The notes beneath the pieces were generated by a model. It ran no database searches and was not told where the DNA came from. It worked only from the letters and a program-made list of their open reading frames with translations. The translations under genes and the position numbers were made by a program. DNA of 64,000 nucleotides from a virus (lineage: Duplodnaviria; Caudoviricetes). The stretch is from positions 5,325-69,324 of the IMG/VR virus record IMGVR_UViG_3300020036_007076; one strand, 5' to 3'. Below, in pieces: positions 3,257 through 31,474 of this stretch; the first letter of the stretch is position 1, and each line of letters begins with the position of its first letter.

Positions 3257-3498
3257 ATATAACATTAATAATTTATATAATTGGAATGATAGTTTCATAT
3301 TATATGATGAGAAAAATAGATAAATCATTTACTTATCTAGATTATACTTGGTTTGATGTATTAAGTTCGATGTTCTCTTCTCTTCTGAGTTGGATTACAG
3401 TATTAGTTATATCACCTTTATATATAAAAAGATGTGTTAAAAATGAATTTATTAAAAAATTATTTTCCAAATTGAAAACACCACCAACATGGCTTTAA
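3253..3498 (+). CDS. small membrane protein
   Basis: two hydrophobic stretches. Confidence 0.55.
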   Translation: MNITLIIYIIGMIVSYYMMRKIDKSFTYLDYTWFDVLSSMFSSLLSWITVLVISPLYIKRCVKNEFIKKLFSKLKTPPTWL

Positions 3499-5301: not shown

Positions 5302-5719
5302 AAATACACCAATTTATCCAATAGCAGATTTAAATAATCATCCTTCATTACTATTTGGTTTAACAAAACGAGAATATTTTGTTGGTTTAGCTATGCAAGG
5401 ATTATTATCAAATCAGTCAATCACAGAACATCATGGAGAATCTGCAATAAAATGGATTACTGAGCATTCAATTAAACAAGCAGATGAAATATTAAAACAA
5501 TTAGGATTAAATATAATAGAAGAATCAAATGAATTCTTTAAAAATAAAGATGAAGTTTGGGTAAAAGATTTAGAGGATGAACTTCCAGTAAGTGCTATTT
5601 TCATTAAATATAATGATTCTAACCAAAAATTTAAATATAGGGTTATAATAGGAGGAAATGATTATGAATCTGATGTTGCTTTTTGTAAATTAAAAGGAAC
5701 TGACCAAAAATGGTATTAA
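5291..5719 (+). CDS. hypothetical phage protein (TKREYF..AMQGLL family)
   Basis: GLTKREYFVGLAMQGLL motif; start reassigned to MENKN. Confidence 0.65.
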   Translation: MENKNTPIYPIADLNNHPSLLFGLTKREYFVGLAMQGLLSNQSITEHHGESAIKWITEHSIKQADEILKQLGLNIIEESNEFFKNKDEVWVKDLEDELPVSAIFIKYNDSNQKFKYRVIIGGNDYESDVAFCKLKGTDQKWY

Positions 5720-6152: not shown

Positions 6153-6209
6153 AGTACTAGGATTACAAAATTTTTTAACATATATTTATAAAAATTAAAA
6201 GATATACAA

Positions 6210-7344: not shown

Positions 7345-7740
7345 ATGAAATTAACACAAGAACAAATAGAAAAAATTAATAAAGAATGTCCTTATGATCA
7401 AGGTATATTTAATGAACCATTTGGTATTCCAAATAATGTTAAAGGATTAGTCATATATGGTCGTTATGAATCAGGAGGGGTAAGTGGTGGATCTTGTTGG
7501 GATTCTAGTAATCCACAACCATACTACAGAGAATCTCCCCCAGATAGAATGAAAGTATTGGATTTAGTTTTGAGAGAAATTAACCCAAATATTTCAGTTT
7601 TAGATTATAGATTAATAAGTGGTCTTATTCAAAGTAGTACAGATACAGATTGGGAATATTATGGTAATCATACCGATTATGTGATTGAATATATATTGTT
7701 AGAAGAGTTATATCAAACATTAGAAAAATTAGGTTATTAG
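7345..7740 (+). CDS. hypothetical protein
   Basis: ORF between two promoter repeats. Confidence 0.7.
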   Translation: MKLTQEQIEKINKECPYDQGIFNEPFGIPNNVKGLVIYGRYESGGVSGGSCWDSSNPQPYYRESPPDRMKVLDLVLREINPNISVLDYRLISGLIQSSTDTDWEYYGNHTDYVIEYILLEELYQTLEKLGY

Positions 7741-7783
7741 GCTTACATAATTTTCAAGTGTATATTTATTAAAAATAAAGGTT

Positions 7784-8044
7784 ATGAAAAGAGAAGAATA
7801 TGTTCAAATGCGTAATTCCAAAACCATATCAATGGAATTAGCTTGGGAATTTTACCAATTAACTCCACACAAATCTCCAAAAGTACCAATTCAATTATTT
7901 GAACAAGTATTTCCAATGTTCTTACAAGGAATATTAATGTTCAATTCAACTATAGATAAATTATATCTCCACTACGACATGAAATTCAATGTTCATAAAT
8001 TAGATGGAACATTTAAAGGTCAAACAATTTCTAAATATTATTAA
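7784..8044 (+). CDS. hypothetical protein
   Basis: follows promoter repeat. Confidence 0.65.
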   Translation: MKREEYVQMRNSKTISMELAWEFYQLTPHKSPKVPIQLFEQVFPMFLQGILMFNSTIDKLYLHYDMKFNVHKLDGTFKGQTISKYY

Positions 8045-8247
8045 AAAATGGAAACAACAAATCTTATTTATCACTTATTAGTGGTATTAATGTCAATAGT
8101 TATGTTTAACACAAAAATAACTGCACCAAATGATTTTCTTGAAATTATTCTAAAATCACTTGCAAAATTAGGTTCATTATTTTGTATGTTATATGCTGGA
8201 GTTTAGTTGTTTAAATATTTTGGAATTATATAAAATAATATGGAATA

Positions 8248-8296
8248 TAACGGCATCAAGCTATGCGCTCGTTTTAATAGCGCATAGGTTGTGTTA
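8248..8296 (+). repeat. attC-like site S1
   Basis: TAAC ggcat CAAgCTATGCGCT cgttttaat AGCGCATAGgTTG t GTTA. Confidence 0.8.
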
Positions 8297-8435
8297 GTTG
8301 GTGCGGTTGCCAGTGGGCTGGTTCTGTTTGTTTTTGTTCTTTTTTGAGAAGGGAGGGGAATTTTAACAAATTATTTGAAACTTTTATTTGTATATATCGT
8401 ATATATGATGTATATTTACTGAAAAATTATAAACC

Positions 8436-8678
8436 ATGAAAACAAAAGAATATAATACAGTTGGTACAGTTGCTTTAAAAGCAGGCGGAACAATGGAAAT
8501 AGGTTCATATTTCAAAGAATTTGAATGCGAAGAAACTGGAATGAAATTAATTGAAGAAACACCAGTTGGATTAATGAGAATTACAGGTATAAAAAGAACT
8601 GTAATATTACCAACAGGAGAAAGAGAAAATTTTATGACTGAAACCACATTTGAAATATTTAAAAAATTAATGAAATGA
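8436..8678 (+). CDS. cassette 1 gene A, hypothetical
   Basis: inside cassette GTTAGTTG(8293)...CAACTAAC(8838). Confidence 0.65.
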   Translation: MKTKEYNTVGTVALKAGGTMEIGSYFKEFECEETGMKLIEETPVGLMRITGIKRTVILPTGERENFMTETTFEIFKKLMK

Positions 8679-8830
8679 GTAAGCAACGTAAAAATATAGA
8701 CTTCACTGATTTTTGTATTGAACAAATTTCGATTGAAGCAGTAAAGAAAAAAACCGATTTCAAGAATTATATTCAGGAATTATCTGAACGTGAAGCTGTG
8801 CGGTTGGCAAAAAAGAACAAAAACAAATAG
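8675..8830 (+). CDS. cassette 1 gene B, small hypothetical; not in ORF track
   Basis: MSKQRKNIDFTDFCIEQ...KNKNK*; ends immediately before CAACTAAC. Confidence 0.55.
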   Translation: MSKQRKNIDFTDFCIEQISIEAVKKKTDFKNYIQELSEREAVRLAKKNKNK

Positions 8831-8834
8831 CAAC

Positions 8835-8920
8835 TAACGGACGGCAATATATGTAGTTGCCTTGCACGAACTTAAAAATTAGTATAAACCTTAATAGGCA
8901 ATTACATATATTGCTTGTTA
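8835..8920 (+). repeat. attC-like site S2
   Basis: TAAC ggacg GCAATATATGTAGTTGCC ... GGCAATTACATATATTGC tt GTTA. Confidence 0.85.
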
Positions 8921-8934
8921 GCAAACGTTTTTTT

Positions 8935-9267
8935 ATGGATTATAAATTAACAACAAATATACAATATTCACACCACGATAAAGATGGTGCTGACAGAAAT
9001 TATATATCATATTTTTTGAATGGCATATTAATATTGAAACAAAAAATACCATTCGATACAAATTGGGAACGTGGCTTTGATAGACGAACATCAATATATG
9101 ATGAATATATTTTGAATGGTAAAATGTATCAAAAACGTAGAAAGTGGCTTGGATGTTCTAATGAGGATAATGATAAAACGGAAATACGAGAGGTGTCATT
9201 CCCATTATCAAAAAATAGATTAGCACAATTTGATATACCAAAGGACTTTCGGATTGTGGTGTCTTAA
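8935..9267 (+). CDS. cassette 2 gene, hypothetical
   Basis: start reassigned to MDYKL; flanked by GTTAGCAAAC and GTTTGCTAAC. Confidence 0.7.
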   Translation: MDYKLTTNIQYSHHDKDGADRNYISYFLNGILILKQKIPFDTNWERGFDRRTSIYDEYILNGKMYQKRRKWLGCSNEDNDKTEIREVSFPLSKNRLAQFDIPKDFRIVVS

Positions 9268-9276
9268 TATGTTTGC

Positions 9277-9402
9277 TAACGTAAAAGTATTGCCGAAGGT
9301 GGGGGCATTAAACCACCAAAGCTAAATTGAAACACAAATGATTGTTAAACCGATGAAGCACCATAGTAGCACTTCTGCCCCACTTTTGGCAATACAGTGT
9401 TA
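9277..9402 (+). repeat. attC-like site S3
   Basis: GTATTGCCGAAGGTGGGG ... CCCCACTTTTGGCAATAC between TAAC and GTTA. Confidence 0.85.
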
Positions 9403-9431
9403 GGTGCAGTGCTTCTCACAAATTTAAAATA

Positions 9432-9680
9432 ATGAAATACATAATTTATGAAATGATTACACCCGAACACTTACAAAAAGTAGTTCAAGAAGGTTATGGT
9501 TACACAAAAACACTTTACAGAAATGTCTTAGAAAAATTAGATGTTTCAGGTGTTGAAGCAGAACACCAAACATTAGAAATGGCTATGGCTGAAATTTTGT
9601 CAAAAAAAGATAAGTTGAAACACTTAGAATTAACGATACTTCCTGTAATAGCAATTTCTTGGGACGGTGAAGTTTCTTAG
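9432..9680 (+). CDS. cassette 3 gene, hypothetical
   Basis: flanked by GTTAGGTGCAGTGCT and AGCATTGCACCTAAC. Confidence 0.7.
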   Translation: MKYIIYEMITPEHLQKVVQEGYGYTKTLYRNVLEKLDVSGVEAEHQTLEMAMAEILSKKDKLKHLELTILPVIAISWDGEVS

Positions 9681-9689
9681 CATTGCACC

Positions 9690-9816
9690 TAACGGCTTCG
9701 GGCTTTGTGTCCGTTGGCGACTTAACCCACCAATGTTAAATTAAAATACAAAACTTGATAATATGAAAAATGTTGAATTGAAAAACGAAACCCCCACTTT
9801 TGGCAATGTGCTGTTA
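9690..9816 (+). repeat. attC-like site S4 (hybrid arms)
   Basis: left arm CGGGCTTTGTGTCCGTTGGCG; non-matching right arm CCCCACTTTTGGCAAT. Confidence 0.8.
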
Positions 9817-10152
9817 TGCCCCGTTTTGGGTCAAACGTATAATTACTTTGATGATGGGAAGATTAACCCAAGTCGAAGAATGGAAGTGGTTATAACAGAA
9901 ATTATTCCATTTGCCGAAATAGATTTAGAAACTTTAAATAATTGGAAAGAAGAAGTTGAAGAATGTGATTGGCTTTATGCTAAAGAAACGGATTTTTTTG
10001 TAAAGGCTGATTTGAAAATTTCCGATAATAAGACTGAAAAGATAATTTTTGTAAGAACCATTAATAATAACGATGGCTGGTTTAGTCTTGGATGGTGGGG
10101 AGGTAGATTAGACATAGATGGTTCGTTAAACGCTCTGTTAAATGGGGCATAA
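9763..10152 (+). CDS. cassette 4 gene, hypothetical; start codon lies in the S4 loop
   Basis: MKNVELKNETPTFGNVLL encoded by the hairpin; stop is the TAA of TAAC. Confidence 0.7.
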   Translation: MKNVELKNETPTFGNVLLCPVLGQTYNYFDDGKINPSRRMEVVITEIIPFAEIDLETLNNWKEEVEECDWLYAKETDFFVKADLKISDNKTEKIIFVRTINNNDGWFSLGWWGGRLDIDGSLNALLNGA

Positions 10153-10277
10153 CGTTTCTCGGCTTGTTGTCAGGCGGGGATTTAGAAACACAAAACTTTC
10201 AATTATGATACGAAGATTATTAGAATTACTACACTTGATTAAACCACAGAAGCCCCGCTTGCAACAAACCGATGTTA
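10150..10277 (+). repeat. attC-like site S5
   Basis: TCGGCTTGTTGTCAGGCGGGG ... CCCCGCTTGCAACAAACCGA. Confidence 0.85.
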
Positions 10278-10414
10278 GCGGAAGTGCTTCTCGTAAGCCT
10301 AACCCTTATCAGTTGGTTTGGTATAAGCAAGGTTGGTCGGAAAACAGAGTTAGAAAAAACAACTCAAAATATTGGGAATTTGAAATAGAACACAATGGTC
10401 TGCGGTTGCCATAG
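10205..10414 (+). CDS. cassette 5 gene, hypothetical; start in the S5 loop
   Basis: MIRRLLE...PRLQQTDVSGS; cassette ends GTTAGCGGAAGTGCT and AGCATTTCCGCTAAC. Confidence 0.6.
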   Translation: MIRRLLELLHLIKPQKPRLQQTDVSGSASRKPNPYQLVWYKQGWSENRVRKNNSKYWEFEIEHNGLRLP

Positions 10415-10423
10415 CATTTCCGC

Positions 10424-10549
10424 TAACGGTTTGCAGATTGCCGAAGGTGGGGCATTAAACCACTAAACTTTAATTAAAATACAAAACTTGATAATATGAA
10501 AAATGTTGAATTGAAAAACGAAACCGCCAATGGCACAAAACCCGTGTTA
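10424..10549 (+). repeat. attC-like site S6 (hybrid arms, reciprocal to S4)
   Basis: left arm ATTGCCGAAGGTGGGG; right arm CGCCAATGGCACAAAACCCG. Confidence 0.8.
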
Positions 10550-10765
10550 TCGGCTGGTTGGATTTCTGTAAAAGAGCAATTACCTGAATGTTGGAGTCAA
10601 CACCGAAATGATTATGGAAGTGGTTACGTTCTTGGTTATACTAAATATGGTGAATGGGAAATAACTCAACTTTGGAATAATAAAGATTGGGAAGGTGATG
10701 ATGACAATGAAGGTGATTATATTACTCATTGGATGCCGTTGACCGTTCCACCAACTTGCCGATAA
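10496..10765 (+). CDS. cassette 6 gene, DUF551-like
   Basis: WISVKEQLP...ITHWMPL; start in the S6 loop; stop is the TAA of TAAC. Confidence 0.75.
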   Translation: MKNVELKNETANGTKPVLSAGWISVKEQLPECWSQHRNDYGSGYVLGYTKYGEWEITQLWNNKDWEGDDDNEGDYITHWMPLTVPPTCR

Positions 10766-10891
10766 CGGTACTCAGATATATTTAGGTTTTCTTTTTAATA
10801 TATAAAACAAAAAAATAAACGAAGATGAAACATTTAAAAACACCACAAGAGTTGAACGAAGCATCAGAAAACTTGAATATATCTGATGTTA
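10763..10891 (+). repeat. attC-like site S7
   Basis: TCAGATATATTTAGGTTTTCT ... AGAAAACTTGAATATATCTGA. Confidence 0.85.
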
Positions 10892-11049
10892 GCCACAGTA
10901 TGACTGGTGAAGGTATGAACAGCCTTGAATTTTTTGATATGATTAAAAAGGAATGGTGTGTAAGTGAAGAACAGTATAAGCCATTCTGGAATGATGTGTT
11001 AACATTTGCTCGAAAGTATCACAAAGAACGTAAGGAATATTGTGGCTAA
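10825..11049 (+). CDS. cassette 7 gene, hypothetical; start in the S7 loop
   Basis: cassette ends GTTAGCCACAGTAT and ATATTGTGGCTAAC. Confidence 0.65.
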   Translation: MKHLKTPQELNEASENLNISDVSHSMTGEGMNSLEFFDMIKKEWCVSEEQYKPFWNDVLTFARKYHKERKEYCG

Positions 11050-11066
11050 CGGCCAATACTGTGTTA
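11047..11066 (+). repeat. attC-like site S8 (internally deleted)
   Basis: TAAC ggccaatactgt GTTA; no hairpin remains. Confidence 0.7.
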
Positions 11067-11111
11067 TAGGTAGTTGTTTTAAAAATTAGCGTTGGCATTA
11101 AAAATATAAAT

Positions 11112-11390
11112 ATGAAATCAGCAGAAGAAATTTTGAAGCCGTATGTTGAAACACCATTCAGGCATACGCAAATAGTTGAAAAAGACAATGCGTTGTTAGC
11201 AATGCAAAAGTTTGCAGACCAATTTAGAGGCGTTGAATGGATTGCGGTTAAAGACCAAAAACCAGCAGATTATGACAGAGTGTTATATTTTGATAGCAGA
11301 GATGGAAATATGAACGTAGGATATTTTGTTTGGTCGCAAACGCCTGTAGATTATGTAACGCATTGGATGAAATTACCTGCTAAACCTTAA
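11112..11390 (+). CDS. cassette 8 gene, DUF551-like C-terminal domain
   Basis: WIAVKDQKP...VTHWMKLP; cassette ends GTTATAGGTAGTTGTTT and AAACAATTACCTATAAC. Confidence 0.75.
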   Translation: MKSAEEILKPYVETPFRHTQIVEKDNALLAMQKFADQFRGVEWIAVKDQKPADYDRVLYFDSRDGNMNVGYFVWSQTPVDYVTHWMKLPAKP

Positions 11391-11423
11391 CTGTGCGGTG
11401 GGAATTTTTGAAACAATTACCTA

Positions 11424-11508
11424 TAACGGTTGCAAATATACAACGTTTTTTGTTAAAAATTCTAAATAAATTTGGTAGTCTGATAAAAATATTTTATATT
11501 TACTGTTA
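11424..11508 (+). repeat. attC-like site S9
   Basis: GCAAATATACAACGTTTTT ... AAAAATATTTTATATTTAC; weaker stem. Confidence 0.7.
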
Positions 11509-11524
11509 GCAAATCGTAAAAATT

Positions 11525-11671
11525 ATGAAAACTTACAAAGTATTATTTTGGTGGGGAAAAGTTAGAAGACAAGAATATGTAGATGCAGAAAAATTAGATG
11601 ATGCACTAAAGTTATTCAGACAAGGAAAATATGGTGATTATGATGTTATTAGCATAGTAGAAAGCGAATAA
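11525..11671 (+). CDS. cassette 9 gene, 48 aa hypothetical; not in ORF track
   Basis: MKTYKVLFWWGKVRRQEY...IVESE*; flanked by GTTAGCAAATCGTAAAAATTAT and ATAATTTTTATGTTTGCTAAC. Confidence 0.65.
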   Translation: MKTYKVLFWWGKVRRQEYVDAEKLDDALKLFRQGKYGDYDVISIVESE

Positions 11672-11684
11672 TTTTTATGTTTGC

Positions 11685-11811
11685 TAACGTAACGCAAGTA
11701 TAAGAAGTTGGGGACTTGAAAAAGTTGGCGTGGGTTCATCGAATCGGGTCAGTTATAGAAGCCGAAGTTCTCAATAGACTCATAACCCCCAATTTCTCAT
11801 ACTTGATGTTA
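11685..11811 (+). repeat. attC-like site S10
   Basis: CAAGTATAAGAAGTTGGGG ... CCCCAATTTCTCATACTTG. Confidence 0.85.
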
Positions 11812-11836
11812 TGTAATCGTTTTAATGTTACATAAC
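11808..11836 (+). mobile_element. gene-less cassette 10
   Basis: GTTATGTAAT cgttttaat GTTACATAAC. Confidence 0.7.
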
Positions 11837-11959
11837 GTTTTGCAGCTAAACGAGGTGGCTGATTAATACCTCGAAACTTAATTTAAATGTATAAAATTAT
11901 GAGTAAAGATAAAACTTCATTAGAAAACGAAAGCCAGCCATCTTGTTTAGGTGCTGTTA
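11833..11959 (+). repeat. attC-like site S11
   Basis: GCAGCTAAACGAGGTGGCTG ... CAGCCATCTTGTTTAGGTGC. Confidence 0.85.
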
Positions 11960-12102
11960 TAAACAGTATTTCTGATGATGGGTTAATTAAACTGTATAGG
12001 TTAGCTTATAATGATGGATTTGATAATGTTGGGGATAAGAAAGATATTATAAAACATAGACAAAAACAGATAGACAAAATTAAGAAGAAATATTGTTTAT
12101 AA
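11887..12102 (+). CDS. cassette 11 gene, hypothetical; start in the S11 loop (11887 or 11899)
   Basis: cassette ends GTTATAAACAGTATTTCT and AGAAATATTGTTTATAA. Confidence 0.65.
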   Translation: MYKIMSKDKTSLENESQPSCLGAVINSISDDGLIKLYRLAYNDGFDNVGDKKDIIKHRQKQIDKIKKKYCL

Positions 12103-12227
12103 AACACAAATGAGTTCTCAGCTTGACCCTACTCTTATGAATGTCAGCAGTAAACTTTTAGGAGTAATTACTCCATATAGTAACAGGTGCCTGATGGATC
12201 CCTGATAAGAAAGAGGGTGCTAAAAAT
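12103..12227 (+). ncRNA. putative structured RNA motif, copy A
   Basis: AACACAAATGAGTTCTCAGC..TGACCCTACTCTTAT..ATAAGAAAGAGGGTGCTAAAAAT, shared with 14984..15123. Confidence 0.55.
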
Positions 12228-12297
12228 TAAGTTAATTTATTAGGATTACAAAATATTAAAGTGTATATTTATTCTATAAATTTAAAATCACAAACAC

Positions 12298-13125
12298 ATG
12301 TCTGTAATTAAATTAGCACTTGAAAAACAAAGAGAAGAACTAATTGAGAAATTAGATATTGCTCAATCATCACTTAATGAACAAATTAATAAAGAAACAC
12401 ATTTATTATTTGATTCGATTGATGATGTGTTTAAAGATTCTAGAATTACTGTCTCTGACTGTAAAATTGAATTTTTTATGGATAGTTCCTCAGGAAAATG
12501 GAGTGGTCACTTCAGTATTGAAAGAAGAAATACCTATAGTTTTAAAGAAAACGCTATAAAATATCATCCCGCTATACTCAATTATAGTTCATGCTCTTCT
12601 CCTGATGAGTTTGAGTTAAAAGGAATGATTGGGAAAGGTAAAATTGCATTCCACCAACTAAATAAAACCAAAACTTGGGATGAAATGGTTGGATTAATGG
12701 ATAAATATGAACAATTGAAAGAGGAATTAATAAAACCTATTAGTGATGTAATTTACGAAATAAGAAATGAATTAGATCTTATCAAACGAAATGAAGAAAC
12801 TGAAAGAATTGAAGCATTAATCAAACAAAAAACAGTCAAATTAGCCAAAAACTATACTTTACAATTAAGTAATAGTAGATATGATAATATCAATTCAAAT
12901 GAATTCTTTTGGGAAGAAAATCCATCAGGTAAAACATACTCCATTTCATACACACATAAAACAAGAGTAAACCCATACTATGATGAAAATGGGGAAAAAT
13001 TGGAAGGTGAATATAAAGATGAAGTAATTAAACTAAATAAACGATTTAAAAAATCTGAAATCTATTATTTGGTTGGTGTTAAAATTAGAGAAGAAAATAA
13101 CCAATTAAACGAAAAAGAATTATAA
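12298..13125 (+). CDS. hypothetical protein
   Basis: 275 aa ORF after promoter repeat. Confidence 0.75.
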   Translation: MSVIKLALEKQREELIEKLDIAQSSLNEQINKETHLLFDSIDDVFKDSRITVSDCKIEFFMDSSSGKWSGHFSIERRNTYSFKENAIKYHPAILNYSSCSSPDEFELKGMIGKGKIAFHQLNKTKTWDEMVGLMDKYEQLKEELIKPISDVIYEIRNELDLIKRNEETERIEALIKQKTVKLAKNYTLQLSNSRYDNINSNEFFWEENPSGKTYSISYTHKTRVNPYYDENGEKLEGEYKDEVIKLNKRFKKSEIYYLVGVKIREENNQLNEKEL

Positions 13126-18374: not shown

Positions 18375-18773
18375 ATGAATAATCTTGATCCAAGAACTAC
18401 TAATATTGTAGTTGATATTTTAAGTAAAACTACCAATAAAGAATTCACTAAAATAATTCAGATGGTGGTTAAAAAGAAAATTAAGAAAACTCTCAAATTC
18501 GAATATAACGTATCTCCATCTACCACTACAGATTGGAATGTTATCAGAGTGGAATTAGCAGATGTGTTGGGGGAAAATGGATTCCATTATTTCAATGATA
18601 AACGCAAAAAATTCAGACGAATCAAATTATATGGTATTAAGGATACAAAACAATTCCTTAAATTCGTAGCAAAACGTTACCCACACCTTCATATCTATCA
18701 TTCAAATGAAAATGATAAAAGTAAATCTTACAGAAACTATTATGATGGATATTGTTTTAAATTACCTTTGTAG
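18375..18773 (+). CDS. hypothetical protein
   Basis: ORF; stop overlaps promoter TAG. Confidence 0.65.
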   Translation: MNNLDPRTTNIVVDILSKTTNKEFTKIIQMVVKKKIKKTLKFEYNVSPSTTTDWNVIRVELADVLGENGFHYFNDKRKKFRRIKLYGIKDTKQFLKFVAKRYPHLHIYHSNENDKSKSYRNYYDGYCFKLPL

Positions 18774-18788
18774 GATTACAATTTAAAT

Positions 18789-19435
18789 TAACGGTTTGCA
18801 TAAGACCAGTAAAGGAATGCGAGAGATGAACTATCGAGTTACACAACAGATTGAGCGGGCTACGATGCTGAAATTACCGATACAACCTTTATTGGTTTTA
18901 TGCGGTGTTACCGCCCGTTTTTATTAATCCTTAAATCAATTTATTATGAGTAAAAAACTCGAAATACTAAAACAATCATTGGCAAAAAAAGAGGAACAAC
19001 TTAACGCTAAATTTGATACTCATTTTGCAACTGTAAAACAAGCCAATGGGCAACCGCTCAACGACAAAAGAAATGGACAAGCCACTTTAAACAAGTGGGA
19101 ACGCCAAAACGAAGGTATTAGGACAATTCAAAAAAGCATTGAAGCGACTAAACAGGCTATTGAAATTGAAGAAGGTAAGATAAAAGGAGTTGAACACACT
19201 AATACTTTTATACCTGCCGAAATTCAAAAGCTGGTTGAAACTGGCGAACTAATTCAATGGAGAAAACACCCGCATACTTTTTTTGTTGCTGGAGTTGATA
19301 AGGCTCGAATTGTTTGGGATGAAAAACGCAAAGTAGTTGCTCATAAATTTGTTAGTGAAATTACTATTCAAGAGCAACGGACAAAATTTGTCAGAATATA
19401 CAACCCATTGAACGCTCTTTTAAATGGGCGGTAAC
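18789..19435 (+). mobile_element. orphan attC-like hairpin plus cassette, joined to the TAAC of an early promoter
   Basis: TAAC ggttt GCATAAGACCAGTAAAGG...CCTTTATTGGTTTTATGC ggt GTTACCGCCCGTTT (18907)...gene...AAATGGGCGGTAAC (19435). Confidence 0.85.
18946..19434 (+). CDS. orphan cassette gene, hypothetical coiled-coil protein
   Basis: stop codon is the TAA of the terminal TAAC. Confidence 0.75.
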   Translation: MSKKLEILKQSLAKKEEQLNAKFDTHFATVKQANGQPLNDKRNGQATLNKWERQNEGIRTIQKSIEATKQAIEIEEGKIKGVEHTNTFIPAEIQKLVETGELIQWRKHPHTFFVAGVDKARIVWDEKRKVVAHKFVSEITIQEQRTKFVRIYNPLNALLNGR

Positions 19436-26727: not shown

Positions 26728-26808
26728 TGCGGAATGTGAGAAGATGGTATCTCATTGGCCTCATAAGCCAACGCGTAAGCCTCACGGGTTCGAGTCCCGT
26801 TTCCGCTA
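26728..26808 (+). tRNA. tRNA-Met (CAT), initiator-like
   Basis: TTGGC CT CAT AA GCCAA; GGTTCGAGTCC T-arm; probable 1:72 mismatch. Confidence 0.8.
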
Positions 26809-26905
26809 CAAATAAAAATAGTTAGAAATAACATGAAGCGTAACGTCATCCGGAGGGGTCCTACGTACCATGACAATGTTCGGGAGTTGTTTATTTTTAT
26901 TATTT

Positions 26906-26977
26906 GGTCCTATAGTTCAAGGGATAGAACAGAAGTTTTCTAAACTTCCAATACAGGTTCGAGTCCTGTTGGGACTA
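26906..26977 (+). tRNA. tRNA-Arg (TCT)
   Basis: GAAGT TT TCT AA ACTTC. Confidence 0.9.
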
Positions 26978-26988
26978 CAAAAATATAT

Positions 26989-27060
26989 GCTCCCGTCGTC
27001 TACTGGCTAGGACATTTGGTTTTCGACCAAAGAAAGACGGATCGATACCGTTCGGGAGTA
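26989..27060 (+). tRNA. tRNA-Glu (TTC)
   Basis: TTTGG TT TTC GA CCAAA. Confidence 0.88.
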
Positions 27061-27362
27061 CGATTACTAAGGTAAAGCTAAGGGTGTAAGAACCTTTATG
27101 TTGGTTAGGGGGAAGCCCCCATGAAATTCTAGGGTAATTTCTTCCTAGAGGTTAAATCCAACTAAAGTGCTAAACTATATAGATAAAGTTAACTTACTTC
27201 CTCTTAGTCTTCAATTGACAGGAATAATACTTTCACATCGGGGTACCTGTAAGCGATGATAACTTAGTAAGTCTTACGTCAATCCATTGACTGTTTCAAA
27301 GGAAGAATTAAATGGATTATTAAGTATGGGCGTCCATCACCTACGACAGAGGAAGACCATAG
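27061..27362 (+). ncRNA. unassigned structured ncRNA of about 300 nt
   Basis: ORF-free; several helices, including crossing pairs 27064/27263 and 27197/27348. Confidence 0.5.
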
Positions 27363-27374
27363 ACACAATTTAAT

Positions 27375-27757
27375 GGGGTCGCCAGGCTTTTGCTGGATAC
27401 TTAAGTTCTTTGAGATGCATGTCGTGTTAGTATTGGAAACACGTAAATAACCTATATAAAAATCAAATGACGAAAAGTCTACTTTTACTTTCGAAGACGC
27501 AATGTCTTTCGTTGGTGCTGATTTAGCAGTAGCTGCTTAATCAATTTGGGTTGTATCCAACCTAGAAACAGAAGGATGCAAGAAATGAATAGAAAGTTTG
27601 AGTTGGTTTACAACTATTTAAATGAAACCGTTAGTCGTAATTGAACTATTTCTCAAAATCAATTATATTTTGTTAGTTTAGAAAAATTGACTAAACATGT
27701 AAATGAATTTCACTCAACACTTATCCAAACGAGGGTTCGATTCCCTCCGGCTCCACT
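27375..27757 (+). ncRNA. ssrA: tmRNA
   Basis: 5' GGGGTCG pairs with 3' CGGCTCC-A (G3.U70); T-arm GAGGG TTCGATT CCCTC; tag ORF 27469-27540 DEKSTFTFEDAMSFVGADLAVAA*. Confidence 0.9.
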
Positions 27758-27797
27758 TTTTCGAACTCCATATTCATATTTATAGTAAAATATAAGT

Positions 27798-28202
27798 ATG
27801 AAAATATGTTCGAAGTGTAAAAATGAAAAGGAGGAAAAGGAATTTAATAAAAATTCTAAAAACAAAAAAACTGGTTTATCTTCCTATTGTAAAGAATGTG
27901 TTAGAAATTCTTCCAAAATATATTATATAAATAATATTTCAATATATAAGGAAAATTACCAAAAACATAGAATTTGGTATGATGAATATAAAAGTTCTTT
28001 AAGATGTTCTAGATGTCCTGAAAACCATCCATCATGTTTAGAATTTCATCATTTAGATCCTAATGAAAAGGAAGGTGGAATATCTGAAATGTTGAAGAGG
28101 AGATTAGACAAAGAAATTATTTTAAAAGAAATTGAAAAGTGTATAGTATTATGTTCTAATTGTCATAAAAAAGAACACTATAAACCTTTTATACATAAAT
28201 AG
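27798..28202 (+). CDS. HNH endonuclease with N-terminal Zn finger
   Basis: CSKC..CKEC; CSRC..EFHHLDP..CIVLCSNCH. Confidence 0.85.
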   Translation: MKICSKCKNEKEEKEFNKNSKNKKTGLSSYCKECVRNSSKIYYINNISIYKENYQKHRIWYDEYKSSLRCSRCPENHPSCLEFHHLDPNEKEGGISEMLKRRLDKEIILKEIEKCIVLCSNCHKKEHYKPFIHK

Positions 28203-28274
28203 CGGGGTAGAGAAGTGGTCATCTCGCAAGCCTCATAAGCTTGAGATCGTTGGTTCGAATCCAACTCAGCGCTA
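28201..28274 (+). tRNA. tRNA-Met (CAT), irregular acceptor stem
   Basis: CAAGC CT CAT AA GCTTG; extra base in the 3' acceptor strand; overlaps the HNH stop codon. Confidence 0.7.
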
Positions 28275-28432
28275 CAACAATACCTTATCAGGCCTCTCGA
28301 CTACCAAAAATGAAGCCCAAATGAGTGAGGTCTTTTTATGTGAATCAAGTTGGGTAGAACAAGATATGACTATGGAGCTCTGTTAAAGAGACGTTTTTAA
28401 CATCTCCTAAACTTTTTTAAATTAAATAAAAA

Positions 28433-28603
28433 ATGGCATTACCTATTAAAAGTACTCCAACTTTATATGGAGAAGATGCAAGAAAATTTTTGGAAGCTAT
28501 AGCTAATCCGAAAAAAGCATCTCCAGAAGAAATCGCTAGAATGAAAGCTCATTATGAAGATTTTAAAAAGATAATGGAGAAAAGTAAAGAAAATTTTGAG
28601 TAA
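28433..28603 (+). CDS. small hypothetical protein; not in ORF track
   Basis: MALPIKSTPTLYGEDARKFLEAI...KENFE*. Confidence 0.65.
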   Translation: MALPIKSTPTLYGEDARKFLEAIANPKKASPEEIARMKAHYEDFKKIMEKSKENFE

Positions 28604-28769
28604 ATTAGGAAATTTAAAATTTCCATCATATATTAAAGTATAAGAAAAAATAATAAAAATTGTATTTTTACAAAATTTACAATATGTATAATAAGAATTG
28701 ATATTCCTTATAAACGAATGGATATAGTACAAGGGCCATTCATATCATCTTAACAATTTAAATAATAAA

Positions 28770-28945
28770 ATGAAAACAACTTACATACATAATCAATTTA
28801 GTCCGTGCCTTCAGGCGACGTATCGTTTATCGATTGTCGATAATAAGGGATGGGGTATAAACCATGGTTCGGTATTAGATGTAGTTTAATTAAGATATAA
28901 TTAAATGATTAATCCGAACCAGGTAAAAGAGGTTCGGATTTTTTG
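28770..28945 (+). promoter_or_regulatory. leader peptide (28770-28889) with antiterminator/terminator; probable attenuator of the tRNA operon
   Basis: 39 aa ORF rich in G/C-ending codons; terminator AATCCGAACC/GGTTCGGATT-TTTT; competing CCATGGTTCGG inside the ORF. Confidence 0.65.
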
Positions 28946-28959
28946 TTTTATATACATAC

Positions 28960-29033
28960 GCGTCTTTAGCTCAGTTTGGTAGAGCACTGGTCTCCAAAAC
29001 CATAGGTCGTAGGTTCGATCCCTACAGGGCGTG
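28960..29033 (+). tRNA. tRNA-Trp (CCA)
   Basis: CTGGT CT CCA AA ACCAT. Confidence 0.9.
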
Positions 29034-29038
29034 CGAAA

Positions 29039-29109
29039 GGTGAAGAGTGTGGGTTCGATACCCATCGAGCCGTTAGGTCGGCTTGTAGTTTAAGTGGTAA
29101 AACATCACT
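29039..29109 (+). ncRNA. circularly permuted tRNA-like RNA (YrlA/Y-RNA-like architecture)
   Basis: GGTGA - T-arm GTGGG TTCGATA CCCAT - CGAGCCG ttaggt CGGCTTG - D-arm GTTT AAGTGGTA AAAC - TCACT. Confidence 0.7.
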
Positions 29110-29117
29110 CATTATAA

Positions 29118-29202
29118 GGAAGGTTGGCAGAGAGGCTTATTGCACTAGTCTTGAAAACTAGAGGATGTAAAAGTTCCGTGAGTTCAAATCTCACACCTTC
29201 CT
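29118..29202 (+). tRNA. tRNA-Ser (TGA)
   Basis: CTAGT CT TGA AA ACTAG; long variable arm. Confidence 0.9.
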
Positions 29203-29211
29203 CAATAAATT

Positions 29212-29298
29212 GGAAGTTAGGTAAATATTGGTTTGTTACGATAACCTGCTAAGTTATTCCAGGTTACACTGGTGAGAGTTCGATTCTCTTGACTTCCG
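29212..29298 (+). tRNA. tRNA-Ser (GCT)
   Basis: ATAAC CT GCT AA GTTAT; long variable arm. Confidence 0.88.
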
Positions 29299-29310
29299 CA
29301 TAAAATATAT

Positions 29311-29380
29311 GGGCGCGATGCCGAAGGCAGGCGGAAACTTTTGCAAAGTTTTTATTAGGGTTCGATTCCCTCGTGGTCCA
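29311..29380 (+). tRNA. tRNA-Ala (TGC), irregular
   Basis: AAACT TT TGC AA AGTTT; G3.T70 pair and A73; bulged acceptor stem. Confidence 0.6.
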
Positions 29381-29431
29381 CAAAGGTTTAGTTTAGAGAT
29401 ATCTATTTTCCTTAAAAAATGAATTCCACCA

Positions 29432-29504
29432 CATCATATAGCTCAGCTGGTAGAGCATTTGTCTGATAAGCAAAAGGCCGTTGGTTCAACTCCAATTATG
29501 ATGA
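29432..29504 (+). tRNA. tRNA-Ile (GAT)
   Basis: TTTGT CT GAT AA GCAAA. Confidence 0.88.
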
Positions 29505-29558
29505 CTTAAAAAATTAAAAAATGGAAACAAGTAAGAAAATCGAGGACGATAAGATTAT

Positions 29559-29630
29559 GTCCTCGTGGCGAGAAGGCACGCGCAGTATACTTTTAATATA
29601 CGGGTAGGGGTTCGATTCCCCTCGGGGACA
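29559..29630 (+). tRNA. tRNA-Lys (TTT)
   Basis: GTATA CT TTT AA TATAC. Confidence 0.82.
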
Positions 29631-29640
29631 CAAAATATAA

Positions 29641-29713
29641 GCTTTGGAAGCTCAGAAGGTAGAGCGGCTGACTGTTAATCAGATGGATGTGGGTTCGACT
29701 CCCACACGAAGCG
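29641..29713 (+). tRNA. tRNA-Asn (GTT)
   Basis: GCTGA CT GTT AA TCAGA. Confidence 0.88.
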
Positions 29714-29724
29714 CAAAAAATAAT

Positions 29725-29809
29725 GGGAGTAAGGTGAATATAGGTTTGTCACCACGGTCTGTAAAACCGCAGCTTTACGTAAGGGTAGGTTCGATTCCTA
29801 CTACTCCCA
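29725..29809 (+). tRNA. tRNA-Tyr (GTA)
   Basis: ACGGT CT GTA AA ACCGC; long variable arm. Confidence 0.88.
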
Positions 29810-29814
29810 CTAAT

Positions 29815-29887
29815 GGATCTTTAGCAAAGTTGGTCAATGCGCTTGTCTGAAGAACAAGTTATATCGGTTCGATTCCGATAGGGTCCA
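29815..29887 (+). tRNA. tRNA-Phe (GAA)
   Basis: CTTGT CT GAA GA ACAAG. Confidence 0.88.
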
Positions 29888-29893
29888 CAAAAA

Positions 29894-29969
29894 CGTGTAA
29901 TAGAGGAGTCAGGTTTATCTCGCTTCATTTGGGATGAAGAGCACGCAGGTTCGAATCCTGCTTACACGA
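29894..29969 (+). tRNA. tRNA-Pro (TGG)
   Basis: CTTCA TT TGG GA TGAAG. Confidence 0.9.
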
Positions 29970-29974
29970 CGAAT

Positions 29975-30048
29975 GCCCTTTTAGCTCAGCAGGAAGTAGC
30001 GCTTGTTTTACATACAAGAGGTCGTAAGTTCGATTCTTACAGAGGGTA
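29975..30048 (+). tRNA. tRNA-Val (TAC)
   Basis: CTTGT TT TAC AT ACAAG. Confidence 0.88.
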
Positions 30049-30054
30049 CTATAA

Positions 30055-30128
30055 GCAGGTAACGCATAAATGGTGGTGCATTGGTCTTCCAAACCGAAAT
30101 AGAGCGAGTTCGATCCTCGCTACCTGCT
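30055..30128 (+). tRNA. tRNA-Gly (TCC)
   Basis: TTGGT CT TCC AA ACCGA. Confidence 0.88.
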
Positions 30129-30202
30129 CAAAAGTTAAAATAGGTCATGATGACGAGACGCCAAATCCACGACTCATATGAATACTAATTAACTTTTATT
30201 AC

Positions 30203-30274
30203 GGTCTATTGGTGTAGGGGTAACAGTACTGTCCTGTCACGGCAGTGTCGCGAGTTCGAGTCTCGCATAGACCG
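30203..30274 (+). tRNA. tRNA-Asp (GTC)
   Basis: CTGTC CT GTC AC GGCAG. Confidence 0.9.
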
Positions 30275-30323
30275 CGAGTTGCACCTTTTTGAACCCATAT
30301 AATATTTATAATAAAATATAAGT

Positions 30324-30734
30324 ATGAAAATATGTTCGAAGTGTAAAATAGAAAAAGAATTAGATAAATTCTTTAAAAATAAAATGAATTGTAAAGATGG
30401 ACATTCTGCTTGGTGTAAAAAATGTCAATTAGAACATAAAAAAATTCATTATATTAATAATAAAGATAAATATTCAGTTAGTTCATTTAATAGTAAAAAA
30501 TGGTTTATTGATTTAAAAATTGGATTAAAATGTATAAATTGTGGATTTAATCATCCTGCAGCATTAGATTTTCACCATGTTAATCCTAAAGAAAAACTTT
30601 TCCCTATTAATTATAGTAATTTTGGTAGAAAAAGTAGAGGAGAAATATTAAAAGAAATAGAAAAATGTATAGTTTTATGTTCAAATTGTCATAGAATAGA
30701 ACATTCAATTAAATATAATGAATATATAAAATAA
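30324..30734 (+). CDS. HNH endonuclease, paralog of 27798..28202
   Basis: MKICSKCK start; DFHHVNP..CIVLCSNCH. Confidence 0.85.
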   Translation: MKICSKCKIEKELDKFFKNKMNCKDGHSAWCKKCQLEHKKIHYINNKDKYSVSSFNSKKWFIDLKIGLKCINCGFNHPAALDFHHVNPKEKLFPINYSNFGRKSRGEILKEIEKCIVLCSNCHRIEHSIKYNEYIK

Positions 30735-30808
30735 GCTTCATACGCATGAATGGTGGTGCACCTCACTTGTAATGAGGAATAGATTCGGTTCGATCCCGGA
30801 ATGAAGCT
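30735..30808 (+). tRNA. tRNA-Thr (TGT)
   Basis: CCTCA CT TGT AA TGAGG. Confidence 0.88.
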
Positions 30809-30874
30809 CTGTGTTGCAACTAATCTGAGGGTCCACAGGTCTAGCCTCAGTTAAAATGACAAAAAGGCCGACCA

Positions 30875-30947
30875 GTACCCTTAGCTCAGATGGTAGAGCA
30901 GTTCACTCATAATGAAAAGGTCACAGGTTCAATTCCTGTAGGGTGCA
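30875..30947 (+). tRNA. tRNA-CAT (elongator Met or Ile2)
   Basis: GTTCA CT CAT AA TGAAA. Confidence 0.85.
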
Positions 30948-30952
30948 CATAG

Positions 30953-31025
30953 GGTGAAATGGTTGAGTGGTTTTAAACACTAGTCTGCAAAACTAGGTAG
31001 GTTGGTTCAATTCCAACTTTCACCT
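30953..31025 (+). tRNA. tRNA-Cys (GCA)
   Basis: CTAGT CT GCA AA ACTAG; U73. Confidence 0.88.
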
Positions 31026-31036
31026 CAAAAGTATAC

Positions 31037-31110
31037 TCTCCCCTCGTCTAATTGGCAGGATGCGATGCTTTGAACATTGCGATGGTTTGGTTCGAATCCA
31101 CCGGGGAGAA
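31037..31110 (+). tRNA. tRNA-Gln (TTG)
   Basis: CGATG CT TTG AA CATTG. Confidence 0.85.
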
Positions 31111-31115
31111 CATAT

Positions 31116-31191
31116 GGTGTTAATAGCTCAATTGGTCAGAGCGCTTGTTTGTGAGATAAGAGGTTATGGGTTCGATCCCCATTTAATACCC
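31116..31191 (+). tRNA. tRNA-His (GTG)
   Basis: CTTGT TT GTG AG ATAAG; G-1 and C73. Confidence 0.88.
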
Positions 31192-31196
31192 TTAAT

Positions 31197-31269
31197 ACAC
31201 CGTTAGTTTAACTGGATAGAATGAGAGGCTACGAACTTCTTGGTATAGGTTCAAATCCTATATGGTGTA
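31197..31269 (+). tRNA. tRNA-Arg (ACG)
   Basis: AGAGG CT ACG AA CTTCT. Confidence 0.9.
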
Positions 31270-31281
31270 CGTTTAATTAAT

Positions 31282-31357
31282 GCCCAACTGGCGAAACTGG
31301 TAGTACGCGTTAGTCTTAGAAACTAAATTTTTGTGGGTTCGAATCCCACGTTGGGTA
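31282..31357 (+). tRNA. tRNA-Leu (TAG), short variable arm
   Basis: TTAGT CT TAG AA ACTAA. Confidence 0.85.
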
Positions 31358-31378
31358 CAAATATTTATTATAAAAAAT

Positions 31379-31459
31379 GCTCCCTTGGTGAAACTGGTAG
31401 TACACGATGAGCTTAAGACTCATTGCCTAGGCGTGCGAGTTCGACTCTCGCAGGGAGTA
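31379..31459 (+). tRNA. tRNA-Leu (TAA)
   Basis: ATGAG CT TAA GA CTCAT. Confidence 0.88.
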
Positions 31460-31474
31460 CAAAAAATTAAAATT

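Follow-up and report, generated by a model that had tools for sequence, protein, structure and literature searches.

A probable integron-type cassette array in a large phage of Bacteroidota

Introduction

Can a phage that looks virulent gain and lose its small accessory genes through an integron-type cassette system of its own? Integrons are commonly regarded as bacterial devices, and the locus that raises the question here is a run of small genes separated by hairpins, at positions 8248–12105 (array 2) of a 64,000-nt stretch of viral DNA (the window). The window corresponds to positions 5325–69324 of the 69,324-bp virus contig IMGVR_UViG_3300020036_007076 (the present genome, G or L002), which CheckV estimates to be 43% of a genome. 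Window coordinates count from contig position 5325, genome coordinates count from the contig start, and all other L numbers denote compared loci. An earlier reading of the window (the original prediction) proposed an integron-like array of eleven cassettes in a lytic phage genome, with no integrase in the window and with a tyrosine recombinase of the host, or one encoded distally, as the mover. We find that this block is probably an array of cassettes belonging to a site-specific recombination system of the integron type that is adapted to phages of Bacteroidota, a reading that is supported by covariation of the end stems and hairpins, by end pairing above controls, and by breakpoints at TAAC in related phages.

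Results and discussion

End complementarity and site signature

All eleven TAAC sites of the original prediction are present in array 2, each with a partner GTTA downstream (Table 1). The junctions that span from one to the other are 126–129 nt long in seven cases and 49, 86, 85 and 20 nt in the remaining four, and they separate units that run from GTTA-x to x'-TAAC, where x and x' (N6 and N6') are complementary within one unit and differ between units. The predicted site form, two arms around a loop, holds for most of the junctions, the exceptions being junctions 4 and 6, which have mismatched arms, and junction 8, which forms no hairpin. Two units also depart from the description, the one at 11808–11836 being an empty 29-nt hairpin and the last, at the array terminus, ending in TAAAAC instead of TAAC with no hairpin after it.

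The complementarity of unit ends greatly exceeds that of shuffled controls. Among 54 distinct cassettes from 10 loci of this and related phages (48 N6 types), own-end pairing averages 5.63 of the six N6 positions, compared with 2.47 when the ends are permuted (maximum 2.98 in 2000 permutations), and the whole genome contains 10 exact GTTA-N6…N6'-TAAC pairs within 1.5 kb, compared with 2.3 in Markov shuffles (maximum 7). Pairing of the cassette start with the inverse core at its own end, a feature of integrons, is thus found here. A G after N6 and a T before N6' occur in 10/10 of the exact pairs of the genome, and the same G·T pair is seen in 59 of 61 candidate cassettes that were collected without requiring it. 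At positions 5–9 of the x stem all four Watson–Crick pair types are represented; position 11 is always G at the unit start with T as its partner at the unit end, and because T precedes GTTA and G follows TAAC, the ten perfect pairs have a top-strand wobble at either end. The overall unit signature, T|GTTA-N6-G…T-N6'-TAAC|G, also occurs at window 18907–19435 and six times at genome 484–3416, upstream of the window.

Hairpin structure and strand bias

Structurally, the junctions are hairpins whose arms covary. Alignment of 14 junctions of 86–92 nt gives 24 pairs, 16 of which carry compensatory changes, with invariant G·T at columns 5/88 and 23/74, and 20 long junctions give 16 pairs, 14 of them with compensatory changes, with the same G·T in 18/20 sequences. 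Invariant G·T pairs mark three places, TAACG·TGTTA, position 14 of the arm and position +11 in the x stem; only these positions and TAACG/TGTTA are fixed, and elsewhere the boundary sequences vary, with paired bases changing together. As the original prediction had proposed, the 14 junctions were used to build a covariance model (R1), which finds ~60 further sites in eight loci outside its training set, all R1 sites lying on the gene strand with minus-strand echoes at least 60 bits lower. The resulting attC-like form runs from TAACG to TGTTA over 49–129 nt, with a 3–4 nt asymmetric spacer and 20-bp covarying arms, and matches no Rfam family; a scan of window 7500–13000 against Rfam (E up to 10) returned two chance-level matches only, MIR904 and PhrS.

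Of the 11 window sites, 9 favour the top strand under DNA folding parameters, the others being junction 8, a tie at 0.0, and junction 9, where the bottom strand folds slightly better. When x' is joined to the upstream junction and to the unit's own x, as in a circle, one continuous hairpin results, and its top strand is again the more stable under DNA parameters. Because the halves on either side of the 3–4 nt bulge both end in RAG·T, read 5' to 3' from the centre (for example TGTTATATGCAGT and GGGTATATATGCAGT), the folded strand would in our reading mimic a core site of dyad symmetry, with one box like R and one like L. The better-folding, G·T-bearing strand of the phage arrays is the sense strand of the open reading frames (ORFs), which point towards the integrase, and the bottom-strand polarity of canonical integrons, with its Pc promoter, is not found; in canonical integrons, the bottom strand alone recombines (PMC3458562).

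A phage recombinase beside a second array

The original prediction was correct that no integrase is encoded in the window, where a protein-family search found no recombinase among ORFs of at least 90 aa, but the genome is not integrase-less, the gene lying 1.06 kb upstream of the window start. There, a second array (array 1) of at least eight cassettes starts at or before genome 117 and ends with its last TAAC at 3413–3416, and 49 nt further on, on the same strand, is the ATG of an Xer/IntI-like tyrosine recombinase, in which the catalytic residues R-K-H-R-H-Y are present and which is the only PF00589 match in the contig. Its closest solved structures are XerA and IntI4. The proposal of a host or distally encoded tyrosine recombinase was therefore right both ways, with this phage gene on the one hand and related Flavobacterium integrases beside like arrays on the other. 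Array 2 lies outside this pairing, and falls under the definition of a cluster of attC sites lacking an integron-integrase (CALIN; at least two sites, integrase not nearby), as do the arrays of the Muminvirus phages described below.

Recombinases 64–85% identical to this one are encoded on phage contigs of up to 180 kb, with more distant ones at 41–43%, and in all phage relatives examined (L004–L008, L010, L011, L018, L019, L021–L023 and L051) the array is directly upstream on the integrase strand, the linkage of array and recombinase extending over 41–85% identity. The last AAC precedes the integrase ATG by 49–50 nt in most relatives and is followed by a conserved half-site like the junction 5' arm; the 49-nt spacing is kept across integrases of 64–85% identity, and L014 (41% identity) is looser, with a gap of ~60 nt and a poorly conserved half-site. 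We consider this a candidate attI-like site; the cassette nearest the integrase differs between relatives.

Cassette turnover in related phages

Phage arrays hold 8–12 cassettes, and their contents are nearly all different between relatives. L021 and L018 are collinear (DNA polymerase, Cpn10, Cpn60, AAA protein, PD-(D/E)XK nuclease and glycosyltransferases), with nothing in common from the end of the polymerase gene to position 9948, which lies at the attI-like AAC, and the present genome has the integrase alone in common with L004 and L007, homology beginning 6–8 nt past TAAC. L042 and L049 carry the ADP-ribosyltransferase cassette of array 1 at 99% and 88% identity, respectively; in both, homology stops exactly at TAAC and unrelated sequence follows. 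The sole segment common to L042 and L026 is one 617-nt cassette; L026 and L031 have a hairpin-plus-cassette unit in common, and L026 and L021 a methyltransferase cassette, from GTTA to TAAC. At times homology breaks at both GTTA and TAAC (L026 versus L021 and L033). Gene order in related genomes is thus not fixed: cassettes are gained, lost and replaced with breakpoints at TAAC, as the original prediction anticipated, and turnover with AAC/GTT breakpoints is itself an integron feature. Misassembly as the cause of the shuffling was ruled out by the extent of sequence common to both sides at the breakpoints (at most 16 nt) and by the same indels in finished genomes of cultured phages. As a separate observation, in the L042 contig with the 99%-identical ADP-ribosyltransferase gene, that gene's own cassette (L042:731-2492; x = TATGCA) contains an extra ~700-nt gene between two TTTGTGGGTAGGTAAATTAAAATTTGAATATTTATATATA leader copies.

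One unit of the present genome stands outside the arrays, at window 18789, where it sits at a TAAC within a TAGGATTACA-N12-RTATATTTA promoter (see below) and interrupts it. The orphan cassette is 93% identical in L038, with homology ending exactly at TAAC, and its gene family is a cassette in L026, L031 and L033, is accompanied by a remnant x' in five loci and occurs without sites elsewhere.

Cassette turnover is also seen in cultured Flavobacterium phages, the Muminvirus phages (L053 mumin6-2, L054 mumin6-3, L055 filifjonk9-1 and L056 tooticki6-1), whose 38-kb genomes hold 9–10 signature cassettes, four of which are DNA methyltransferases, and one of whose junctions is 72% identical to junction 5. 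Over 12 kb, mumin6-2 and mumin6-3 share 99.9% identity, and what sets them apart is one 506-nt unit, a junction plus gp008, flanked by TAACGTT; tooticki and filifjonk show more cassette gains and replacements relative to mumin, with edges at TAAC or at most 12 nt away, within blocks of at least 99.5% identity. The methyltransferase content of these phages has been linked to plating efficiency in a study that does not mention hairpins or integrases (PMC7077304). A mobile unit that begins with its hairpin is supported by the array ends, the orphan, L026/L031 and the mumin indel, although it is not universal, hairpins being exchanged separately at times.

Related arrays in Bacteroidota chromosomes

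IntI-like recombinases, for which the original prediction had proposed a search of Bacteroidota hosts, are found there, and arrays that carry the phage site signature lie next to some of them. Recombinases 38–48% identical to the phage one are encoded in more than 574 Bacteroidota genome stretches, and 10 of the 80 loci kept have at least two signature cassettes downstream of the integrase on the opposite strand, mostly in Flavobacterium or unclassified Bacteroidia. Like the phage arrays, these chromosomal arrays (F. terrisoli, F. caseinilyticum, F. xinjiangense, Catalinimonas and others) have the full unit signature and an adjoining related integrase, for which the best models are NF040815 and TIGR02249; unlike them, the array is downstream of the integrase, and the integrase and most ORFs run antisense to the folding strand, a few ORFs lying on it as all phage cassettes do. 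Catalinimonas has the same arrangement, with an attC-like junction that is shorter, at 60 nt (one junction inspected). Read from these sequences, the polarity of the host arrays is that of canonical integrons, and integrons are already known from Bacteroidota (PMC8618304). Between the phage arrays and 81 sampled host loci we found no cassette genes in common beyond generic methyltransferase similarity.

Contents of array 2 and genomic setting

In five window cassettes the ORF starts inside the hairpin loop, and the 3' arms fall in its first ~20 codons; in three, the TAA of TAAC serves as the stop codon (Table 1). The DUF551 domain of cassette 6 has its first residue at 21, immediately past the junction-encoded leader. 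Unrelated genes can have common end modules (for example GTTAGGTGCAGTGCTTCTCACAAA…TAGCATTGCACCTAAC): those of cassette 3 recur around unrelated genes in L007, L008 and L021, and cassette 4 (10125–10153) and the orphan (19407–19435), which encode unrelated proteins, have the same C-terminal ending (S/P)LNALLNG(A/R) before the stop codon. The x' module encodes this ending, which in cassette 4 stands in place of the C-terminus of a megaphage homologue (LR756504.1), which has its own ATG, a different C-terminus and no flanking sites.

Junction 2 has near-identical copies in array 1 (genome 117–204 and 400–487), and junction 11 is 86–88% identical to two L007 junctions, homology running from TAAC to GTTA. 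The arms of junctions 4 and 6 are mismatched because each junction holds the other's partner arm, and the two junctions (9690–9816 and 10424–10549) include an 82-nt direct repeat of 89% identity (9715–9796 versus 10448–10529) that contains the common start MKNVELKNET. This arrangement suggests either homologous exchange between the loops or a circle of two cassettes that inserted into the loop of a junction.

Two further features were noted. The motif (G/C)TGCGGTTG(C/G)CA lies just within several cassette ends (8301–8312, 8798–8809, 10400–10411 and 11386–11396). Minimal hairpins with a CGTTTTAAT loop occur at window 11808–11836, at L010:9923-9951 and in the short junctions of L004, L007, L008 and L010, both as empty cassettes (GTTA…TAAC) and as 48–49-nt junctions (TAAC…GTTA).

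Table 1 Coordinates of array 2, the orphan unit, the phage recombinase and related loci (window coordinates unless marked genome; TAAC and GTTA columns give the first position of each motif).
Feature	Position	Strand	TAAC	GTTA	ORF or product	Remarks
Junction 1, start of array 2	8248..8296	+	8248	8293		49-nt TAACG…TGTTA hairpin, loop CGTTTTAAT; fold top -13.2, bottom -9.8 kcal/mol (DNA parameters)
Cassette 1	8293..8838	+			8436-8678 (80 aa) and 8675-8830 (51 aa), both +	ends GTTAGTTG…CAACTAAC; second stem segment extended to 23 nt (inverted repeat)
Junction 2	8835..8920	+	8835	8917		86-nt hairpin; 84 bits against model R1
Cassette 2	8917..9280	+			about 8935-9267 (110 aa)	x = GCAAAC
Junction 3	9277..9402	+	9277	9399		126-nt hairpin
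Cassette 3	9399..9693	+			9432-9680 (82 aa)	x = GGTGCA plus leader GTGCTTCTCACAAA
Junction 4 and cassette 4	9690..10153	+	9690	9813	9763-10152 (129 aa), +; start in hairpin loop, stop = TAA of TAAC	junction 127 nt, its 5' arm pairs with junction 6 3' arm; x = TGCCCC
Junction 5 and cassette 5	10150..10427	+	10150	10274	ATG 10205 to 10414 (69 aa)	junction 128 nt; x = GCGGAA
Junction 6 and cassette 6	10424..10766	+	10424	10546	10496-10765 (89 aa)	junction 126 nt, arms swapped with junction 4; x = TCGGCT
Junction 7 and cassette 7	10763..11050	+	10763	10888	10825-11049 (74 aa), +; loop start, stop = TAA of TAAC	junction 129 nt; x = GCCACA
Junction 8 and cassette 8	11047..11427	+	11047	11063	11112-11390 (92 aa, DUF551), +	junction 20 nt, no hairpin; x = TAGGTA; 25-nt end stem (inverted repeat)
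Junction 9 and cassette 9	11424..11688	+	11424	11505	11525-11671 (48 aa)	junction 85 nt; x = GCAAAT
Junction 10 and empty cassette	11685..11836	+	11685	11808		junction 127 nt, then 29-nt hairpin GTTATGTAAT-CGTTTTAAT-GTTACATAAC at 11808-11836
Junction 11 and cassette 11	11833..12105	+	11833	11956	11887-12102 (71 aa)	junction 127 nt; x = TAAACA
Orphan unit outside array	18789..19435	+			18946-19434 (162 aa)	TAAC, 122-nt hairpin, GTTACCGCCC, ORF, GGGCGGTAAC
Last cassette of array 1	within genome 115-3416	+			ART-PolyVal ADP-ribosyltransferase, 230 aa	PF18760 (5e-17)
Tyrosine recombinase, Xer/IntI-like	genome 3466-4263	+			265 aa	PF00589 (4.9e-33), PF13495
Host loci, IntI-like gene then arrays (Flavobacterium, Catalinimonas)	L104:9611-15903, L095, L131, L071, L063, L050

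The long ORFs of the contig are on the + strand without exception, and those of the window include genes for a sigma-70-like factor, GIY-YIG and HNH endonucleases, a PD-(D/E)XK nuclease, a primase, a gp25-like protein and baseplate proteins, with 25 tRNA genes as a block at 26728–31460. To judge from the tRNA block and the genes for baseplate, primase and sigma factor, this is a large phage on the scale of T4; a lysogeny module is not evident, and the carrier of the array looks virulent. No relatives of the proteins flanking array 2 (12298–13125 and 18375–18773) were found in IMG/VR. The sequence TAGGATTACA occurs 16 times in the window (33, 4482, 6158, 12241 … 24894) compared with 0.36 expected, with RTATATTTA ~12 nt downstream of its copies and an intervening spacer that often ends in TAAC; TAGGATTACA-N12-RTATATTTA is probably a phage-specific promoter that the window's sigma-70-like factor could read. 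As the original prediction had it, the block contains none of these promoters, TAGGATTACA being missing between its copies at 6158 and 12241 and hence throughout array 2. Sigma-70-type promoter-like sites show no excess in the array (21 versus 21.4 expected), nor do terminator-like sites (1 versus 1.9 expected), and T-runs after the hairpins are absent.

A model for cassette movement

We posit that the mobile unit reads, on the + strand, C-G-(hairpin)-T-GTTA-x-gene-x'-TAA. Once circularised, its x'/x, TAACG/TGTTA and hairpin arms would pair into one long imperfect hairpin, in which two half-sites, each ending in the RAG·T wobble, would face each other across the 3–4 nt bulge as the equivalent of an attC with R and L boxes. 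The phage recombinase, as the putative catalyst, would cut the folded top strand, a single-stranded DNA substrate in this model, within AAC (AA|C), and the partner in strand exchange would be another folded site (giving excision or shuffling), the attI-like half-site by the integrase gene, or a stray AAC, as at the orphan; a host integrase might also act in trans. Read along the folding strand, the array comes first, then the attI-like site, then the integrase in sense; this is the canonical integron order with the ORFs alone flipped, and since the cassette ORFs lie on the folding strand they are co-directional with the integrase. These ORFs are not arranged for a Pc-type promoter, the start codon and first ~17–20 codons often coming from the hairpin loop instead.

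A more specific version, about which we are evenly divided, is that of a phage-adapted integron lineage with its cassette genes on the recombinogenic strand, which would be exposed by replication or transcription. In this lineage, loops would donate start codons and leaders of ~18 residues in place of a Pc, three G·T mismatches would replace extrahelical bases and be read by a minimal integrase, Xer-like and lacking the IntI insertion, and the cassette pool would be common to host and phage.

Several observations weigh against an integron-type reading. No recombination event has been seen directly. The recombinase scores below the cut-off of every NCBIfam model, its two best being archaeal XerA/integron integrase (166 versus 220) and TIGR02249 integron integrase (151 versus 265); the latter match falls in two stretches, and PRK15417 reaches 62.6 compared with a cut-off of 435. 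In the alignment with IntI4 (2a3v), query residues 178–210 correspond to chain residues 182–262, ~48 residues fewer, so the IntI-specific insertion is absent, and with it the additional domain near patch III that characterizes integron integrases. The integrase is 9.3 kb away from array 2, whose end lacks an attI-like site. The complete Muminvirus genomes have no PF00589 match despite their arrays and recent cassette indels, and a trans-acting enzyme or a recombinase-independent route must therefore be assumed there. The same cassette can stand behind different hairpins (L026 versus L033) and the same x/x' modules around unrelated genes, and thus a single AA|C crossover cannot account for all exchanges. 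Finally, all of the G·T pairs would alike be G·U in mRNA.

Alternative explanations

The alternative that survives best, although we consider it improbable, is shuffling without a dedicated recombinase, as with the stem-loop elements called PeSL in T4-type phages: the hairpins would be regulatory or structural, genes would be exchanged between repeats by homologous, microhomology or template-switch events, and the recombinase would serve another use, such as multimer resolution. The junction loops are indeed conserved repeats, the arm swap of junctions 4 and 6 is what exchange within their 82-nt repeat would produce, the extra gene of L042 lies between duplicated leaders, the recent Muminvirus indels arose without a recombinase in the genome, and PeSL mini-circles are documented in T4-type phages (PMC2839356, PMC4122927). 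PeSL also resemble the arrays in being repeated intergenic stem-loops that flank small accessory ORFs in hyperplastic regions with modular gain and loss (PMC2839356, PMC4122927). However, PeSL consist of a promoter and a terminator and are homology-driven, with no cassette-specific end pairing, AAC/GTT crossover or recombinase, and array 2 has no excess of either element. Breaks in the arrays fall at TAAC with at most 7 nt in common, such as TAACGTT, or with TAAC followed by unrelated sequence; covarying x/x' stems and invariant G·T are beyond the reach of homologous exchange; the spacing to the integrase start is kept while the integrases diverge; and in host chromosomes, too, these sites occur together with related integrases.

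Slightly less credible still is that the structures are an RNA feature first, with G·U-containing mRNA stems bracketing each gene and its start codon for processing, stability or translational control, and with the cassette look as a by-product. The identity of folding and sense strand in every phage array, the restriction of conserved mismatches to G·T, and the placing of start codons in loops and of 3' arms in the first ~20 codons all fit this idea. It is weakened by the Flavobacterium and Catalinimonas chromosomes, where the signature is antisense to most ORFs and therefore not tied to mRNA, and it predicts neither the TAAC breakpoints, nor the orphan at a promoter AAC, nor the linkage to a recombinase; an Rfam family match is also missing. 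The hairpins may nevertheless have a secondary RNA role beside recombination.

Least credible are duplex Xer/dif-type modules like the pdif modules of Acinetobacter plasmids, or invertible segments, in which the boundary would be a duplex core site with an N6 overlap that supports inversion or exchange: the recombinase is closest to XerA, XerC and XerD, two kinds of inverted-repeat-bounded modules alternate and homology sometimes breaks at GTTA and TAAC both, but G is at the left end and T at the right end in 59/59 signature cassettes, all ORFs are co-directional, the flanking arms covary as base pairs with no conserved protein-binding consensus and no 11-6-11 bp duplex site, and 20-bp hairpins with strand-specific G·T are foreign to dif sites. 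The XerC/XerD-dependent pdif modules share with the phage arrays an Xer-family recombinase and genes bounded by inverted sites in alternating modules, but have conserved 28-bp duplex sites, no long hairpins and no covarying stems. Invertible segments were rejected in their own right, 0/59 signature cassettes being inverted, as was an IS200/IS605-type or other transposase as the mover, the window encoding no such protein.

Relation to known integrons

Among known systems, the arrays can be compared with sedentary chromosomal integrons, of which the Vibrio superintegron, whose VCR attC sites are ~125 nt long, is an example. Both have single small ORFs between imperfect palindromes of ~50–130 nt that run from …AAC to GTT…, cassette starts that pair with their own ends, site families that are similar within an array, one strand that folds preferentially, the folding-strand order of array, attI (a candidate attI-like site in the phages) and integrase, secondary insertion at AAC/GTT and high cassette turnover in a conserved backbone. 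The phage system differs in its 265-aa integrase, which lacks the IntI-specific insertion, in a paired R box of ~15 bp rather than 7 bp, in a strand choice marked by three invariant G·T rather than by extrahelical bases, and in ORFs on the folding strand, with hairpins that precede the genes and give them start codons and with no Pc-type arrangement. The original prediction rightly noted that these sites depart from canonical attC, but its list of departures, the asymmetric spacer and long core complementarity, was too short and should include sense-strand folding, the invariant G·T and the integrase without the IntI insertion. With two canonical integron features wanting (the IntI insertion and the bottom-strand/Pc polarity), the system appears best filed as a phage-adapted integron variant.

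Pieces of canonical integrons have been reported in phages before: using IntegronFinder, Qi et al. (2023) described them in 21 phages, mostly as 2-site CALINs or fragments of bacterial integrons, and tested the phage sites with bacterial IntI1 on bottom strands (PMC9892861). The likeness lies in attC-type sites or CALINs in phages both temperate and virulent, one of them a phage of Polaribacter (Bacteroidota), and in methyltransferase cassettes (PMC9892861); the arrays described here differ in holding 8–12 cassettes, in occurring in many phages with their own integrase beside the array, and in their reversed gene polarity. A search of the literature, incomplete in coverage so that an earlier description is possible, found no account of this arrangement.

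Implications

These findings mean that a whole lineage of large Bacteroidota phages encodes its own integrase next to long arrays, while smaller cultured Flavobacterium phages hold arrays without one. The IntI-specific domain is thought to read extrahelical bases, and a system that combines reversed ORF polarity, G·T in place of extrahelical bases and an integrase without the reading domain therefore allows the essential features of integrons to be identified. Since the signature is also used in Flavobacterium chromosomes, there could be a cassette pool shared by hosts and phages, to which a phage could contribute and from which it could take genes whether or not it has an integrase of its own; this pool would include methyltransferase and ADP-ribosyltransferase genes. 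The short integrase and its structured sites are a possible tool for engineered recombination, and the cultured Muminvirus phages with Flavobacterium LMO6/LMO9 form pairs that are an experimentally tractable model, their cassettes including the methyltransferases tied to plating efficiency (PMC7077304). For phage biology, the arrays would provide a concrete, testable mechanism for the fast turnover of small accessory and anti-defence genes in the hyperplastic regions of phage genomes.

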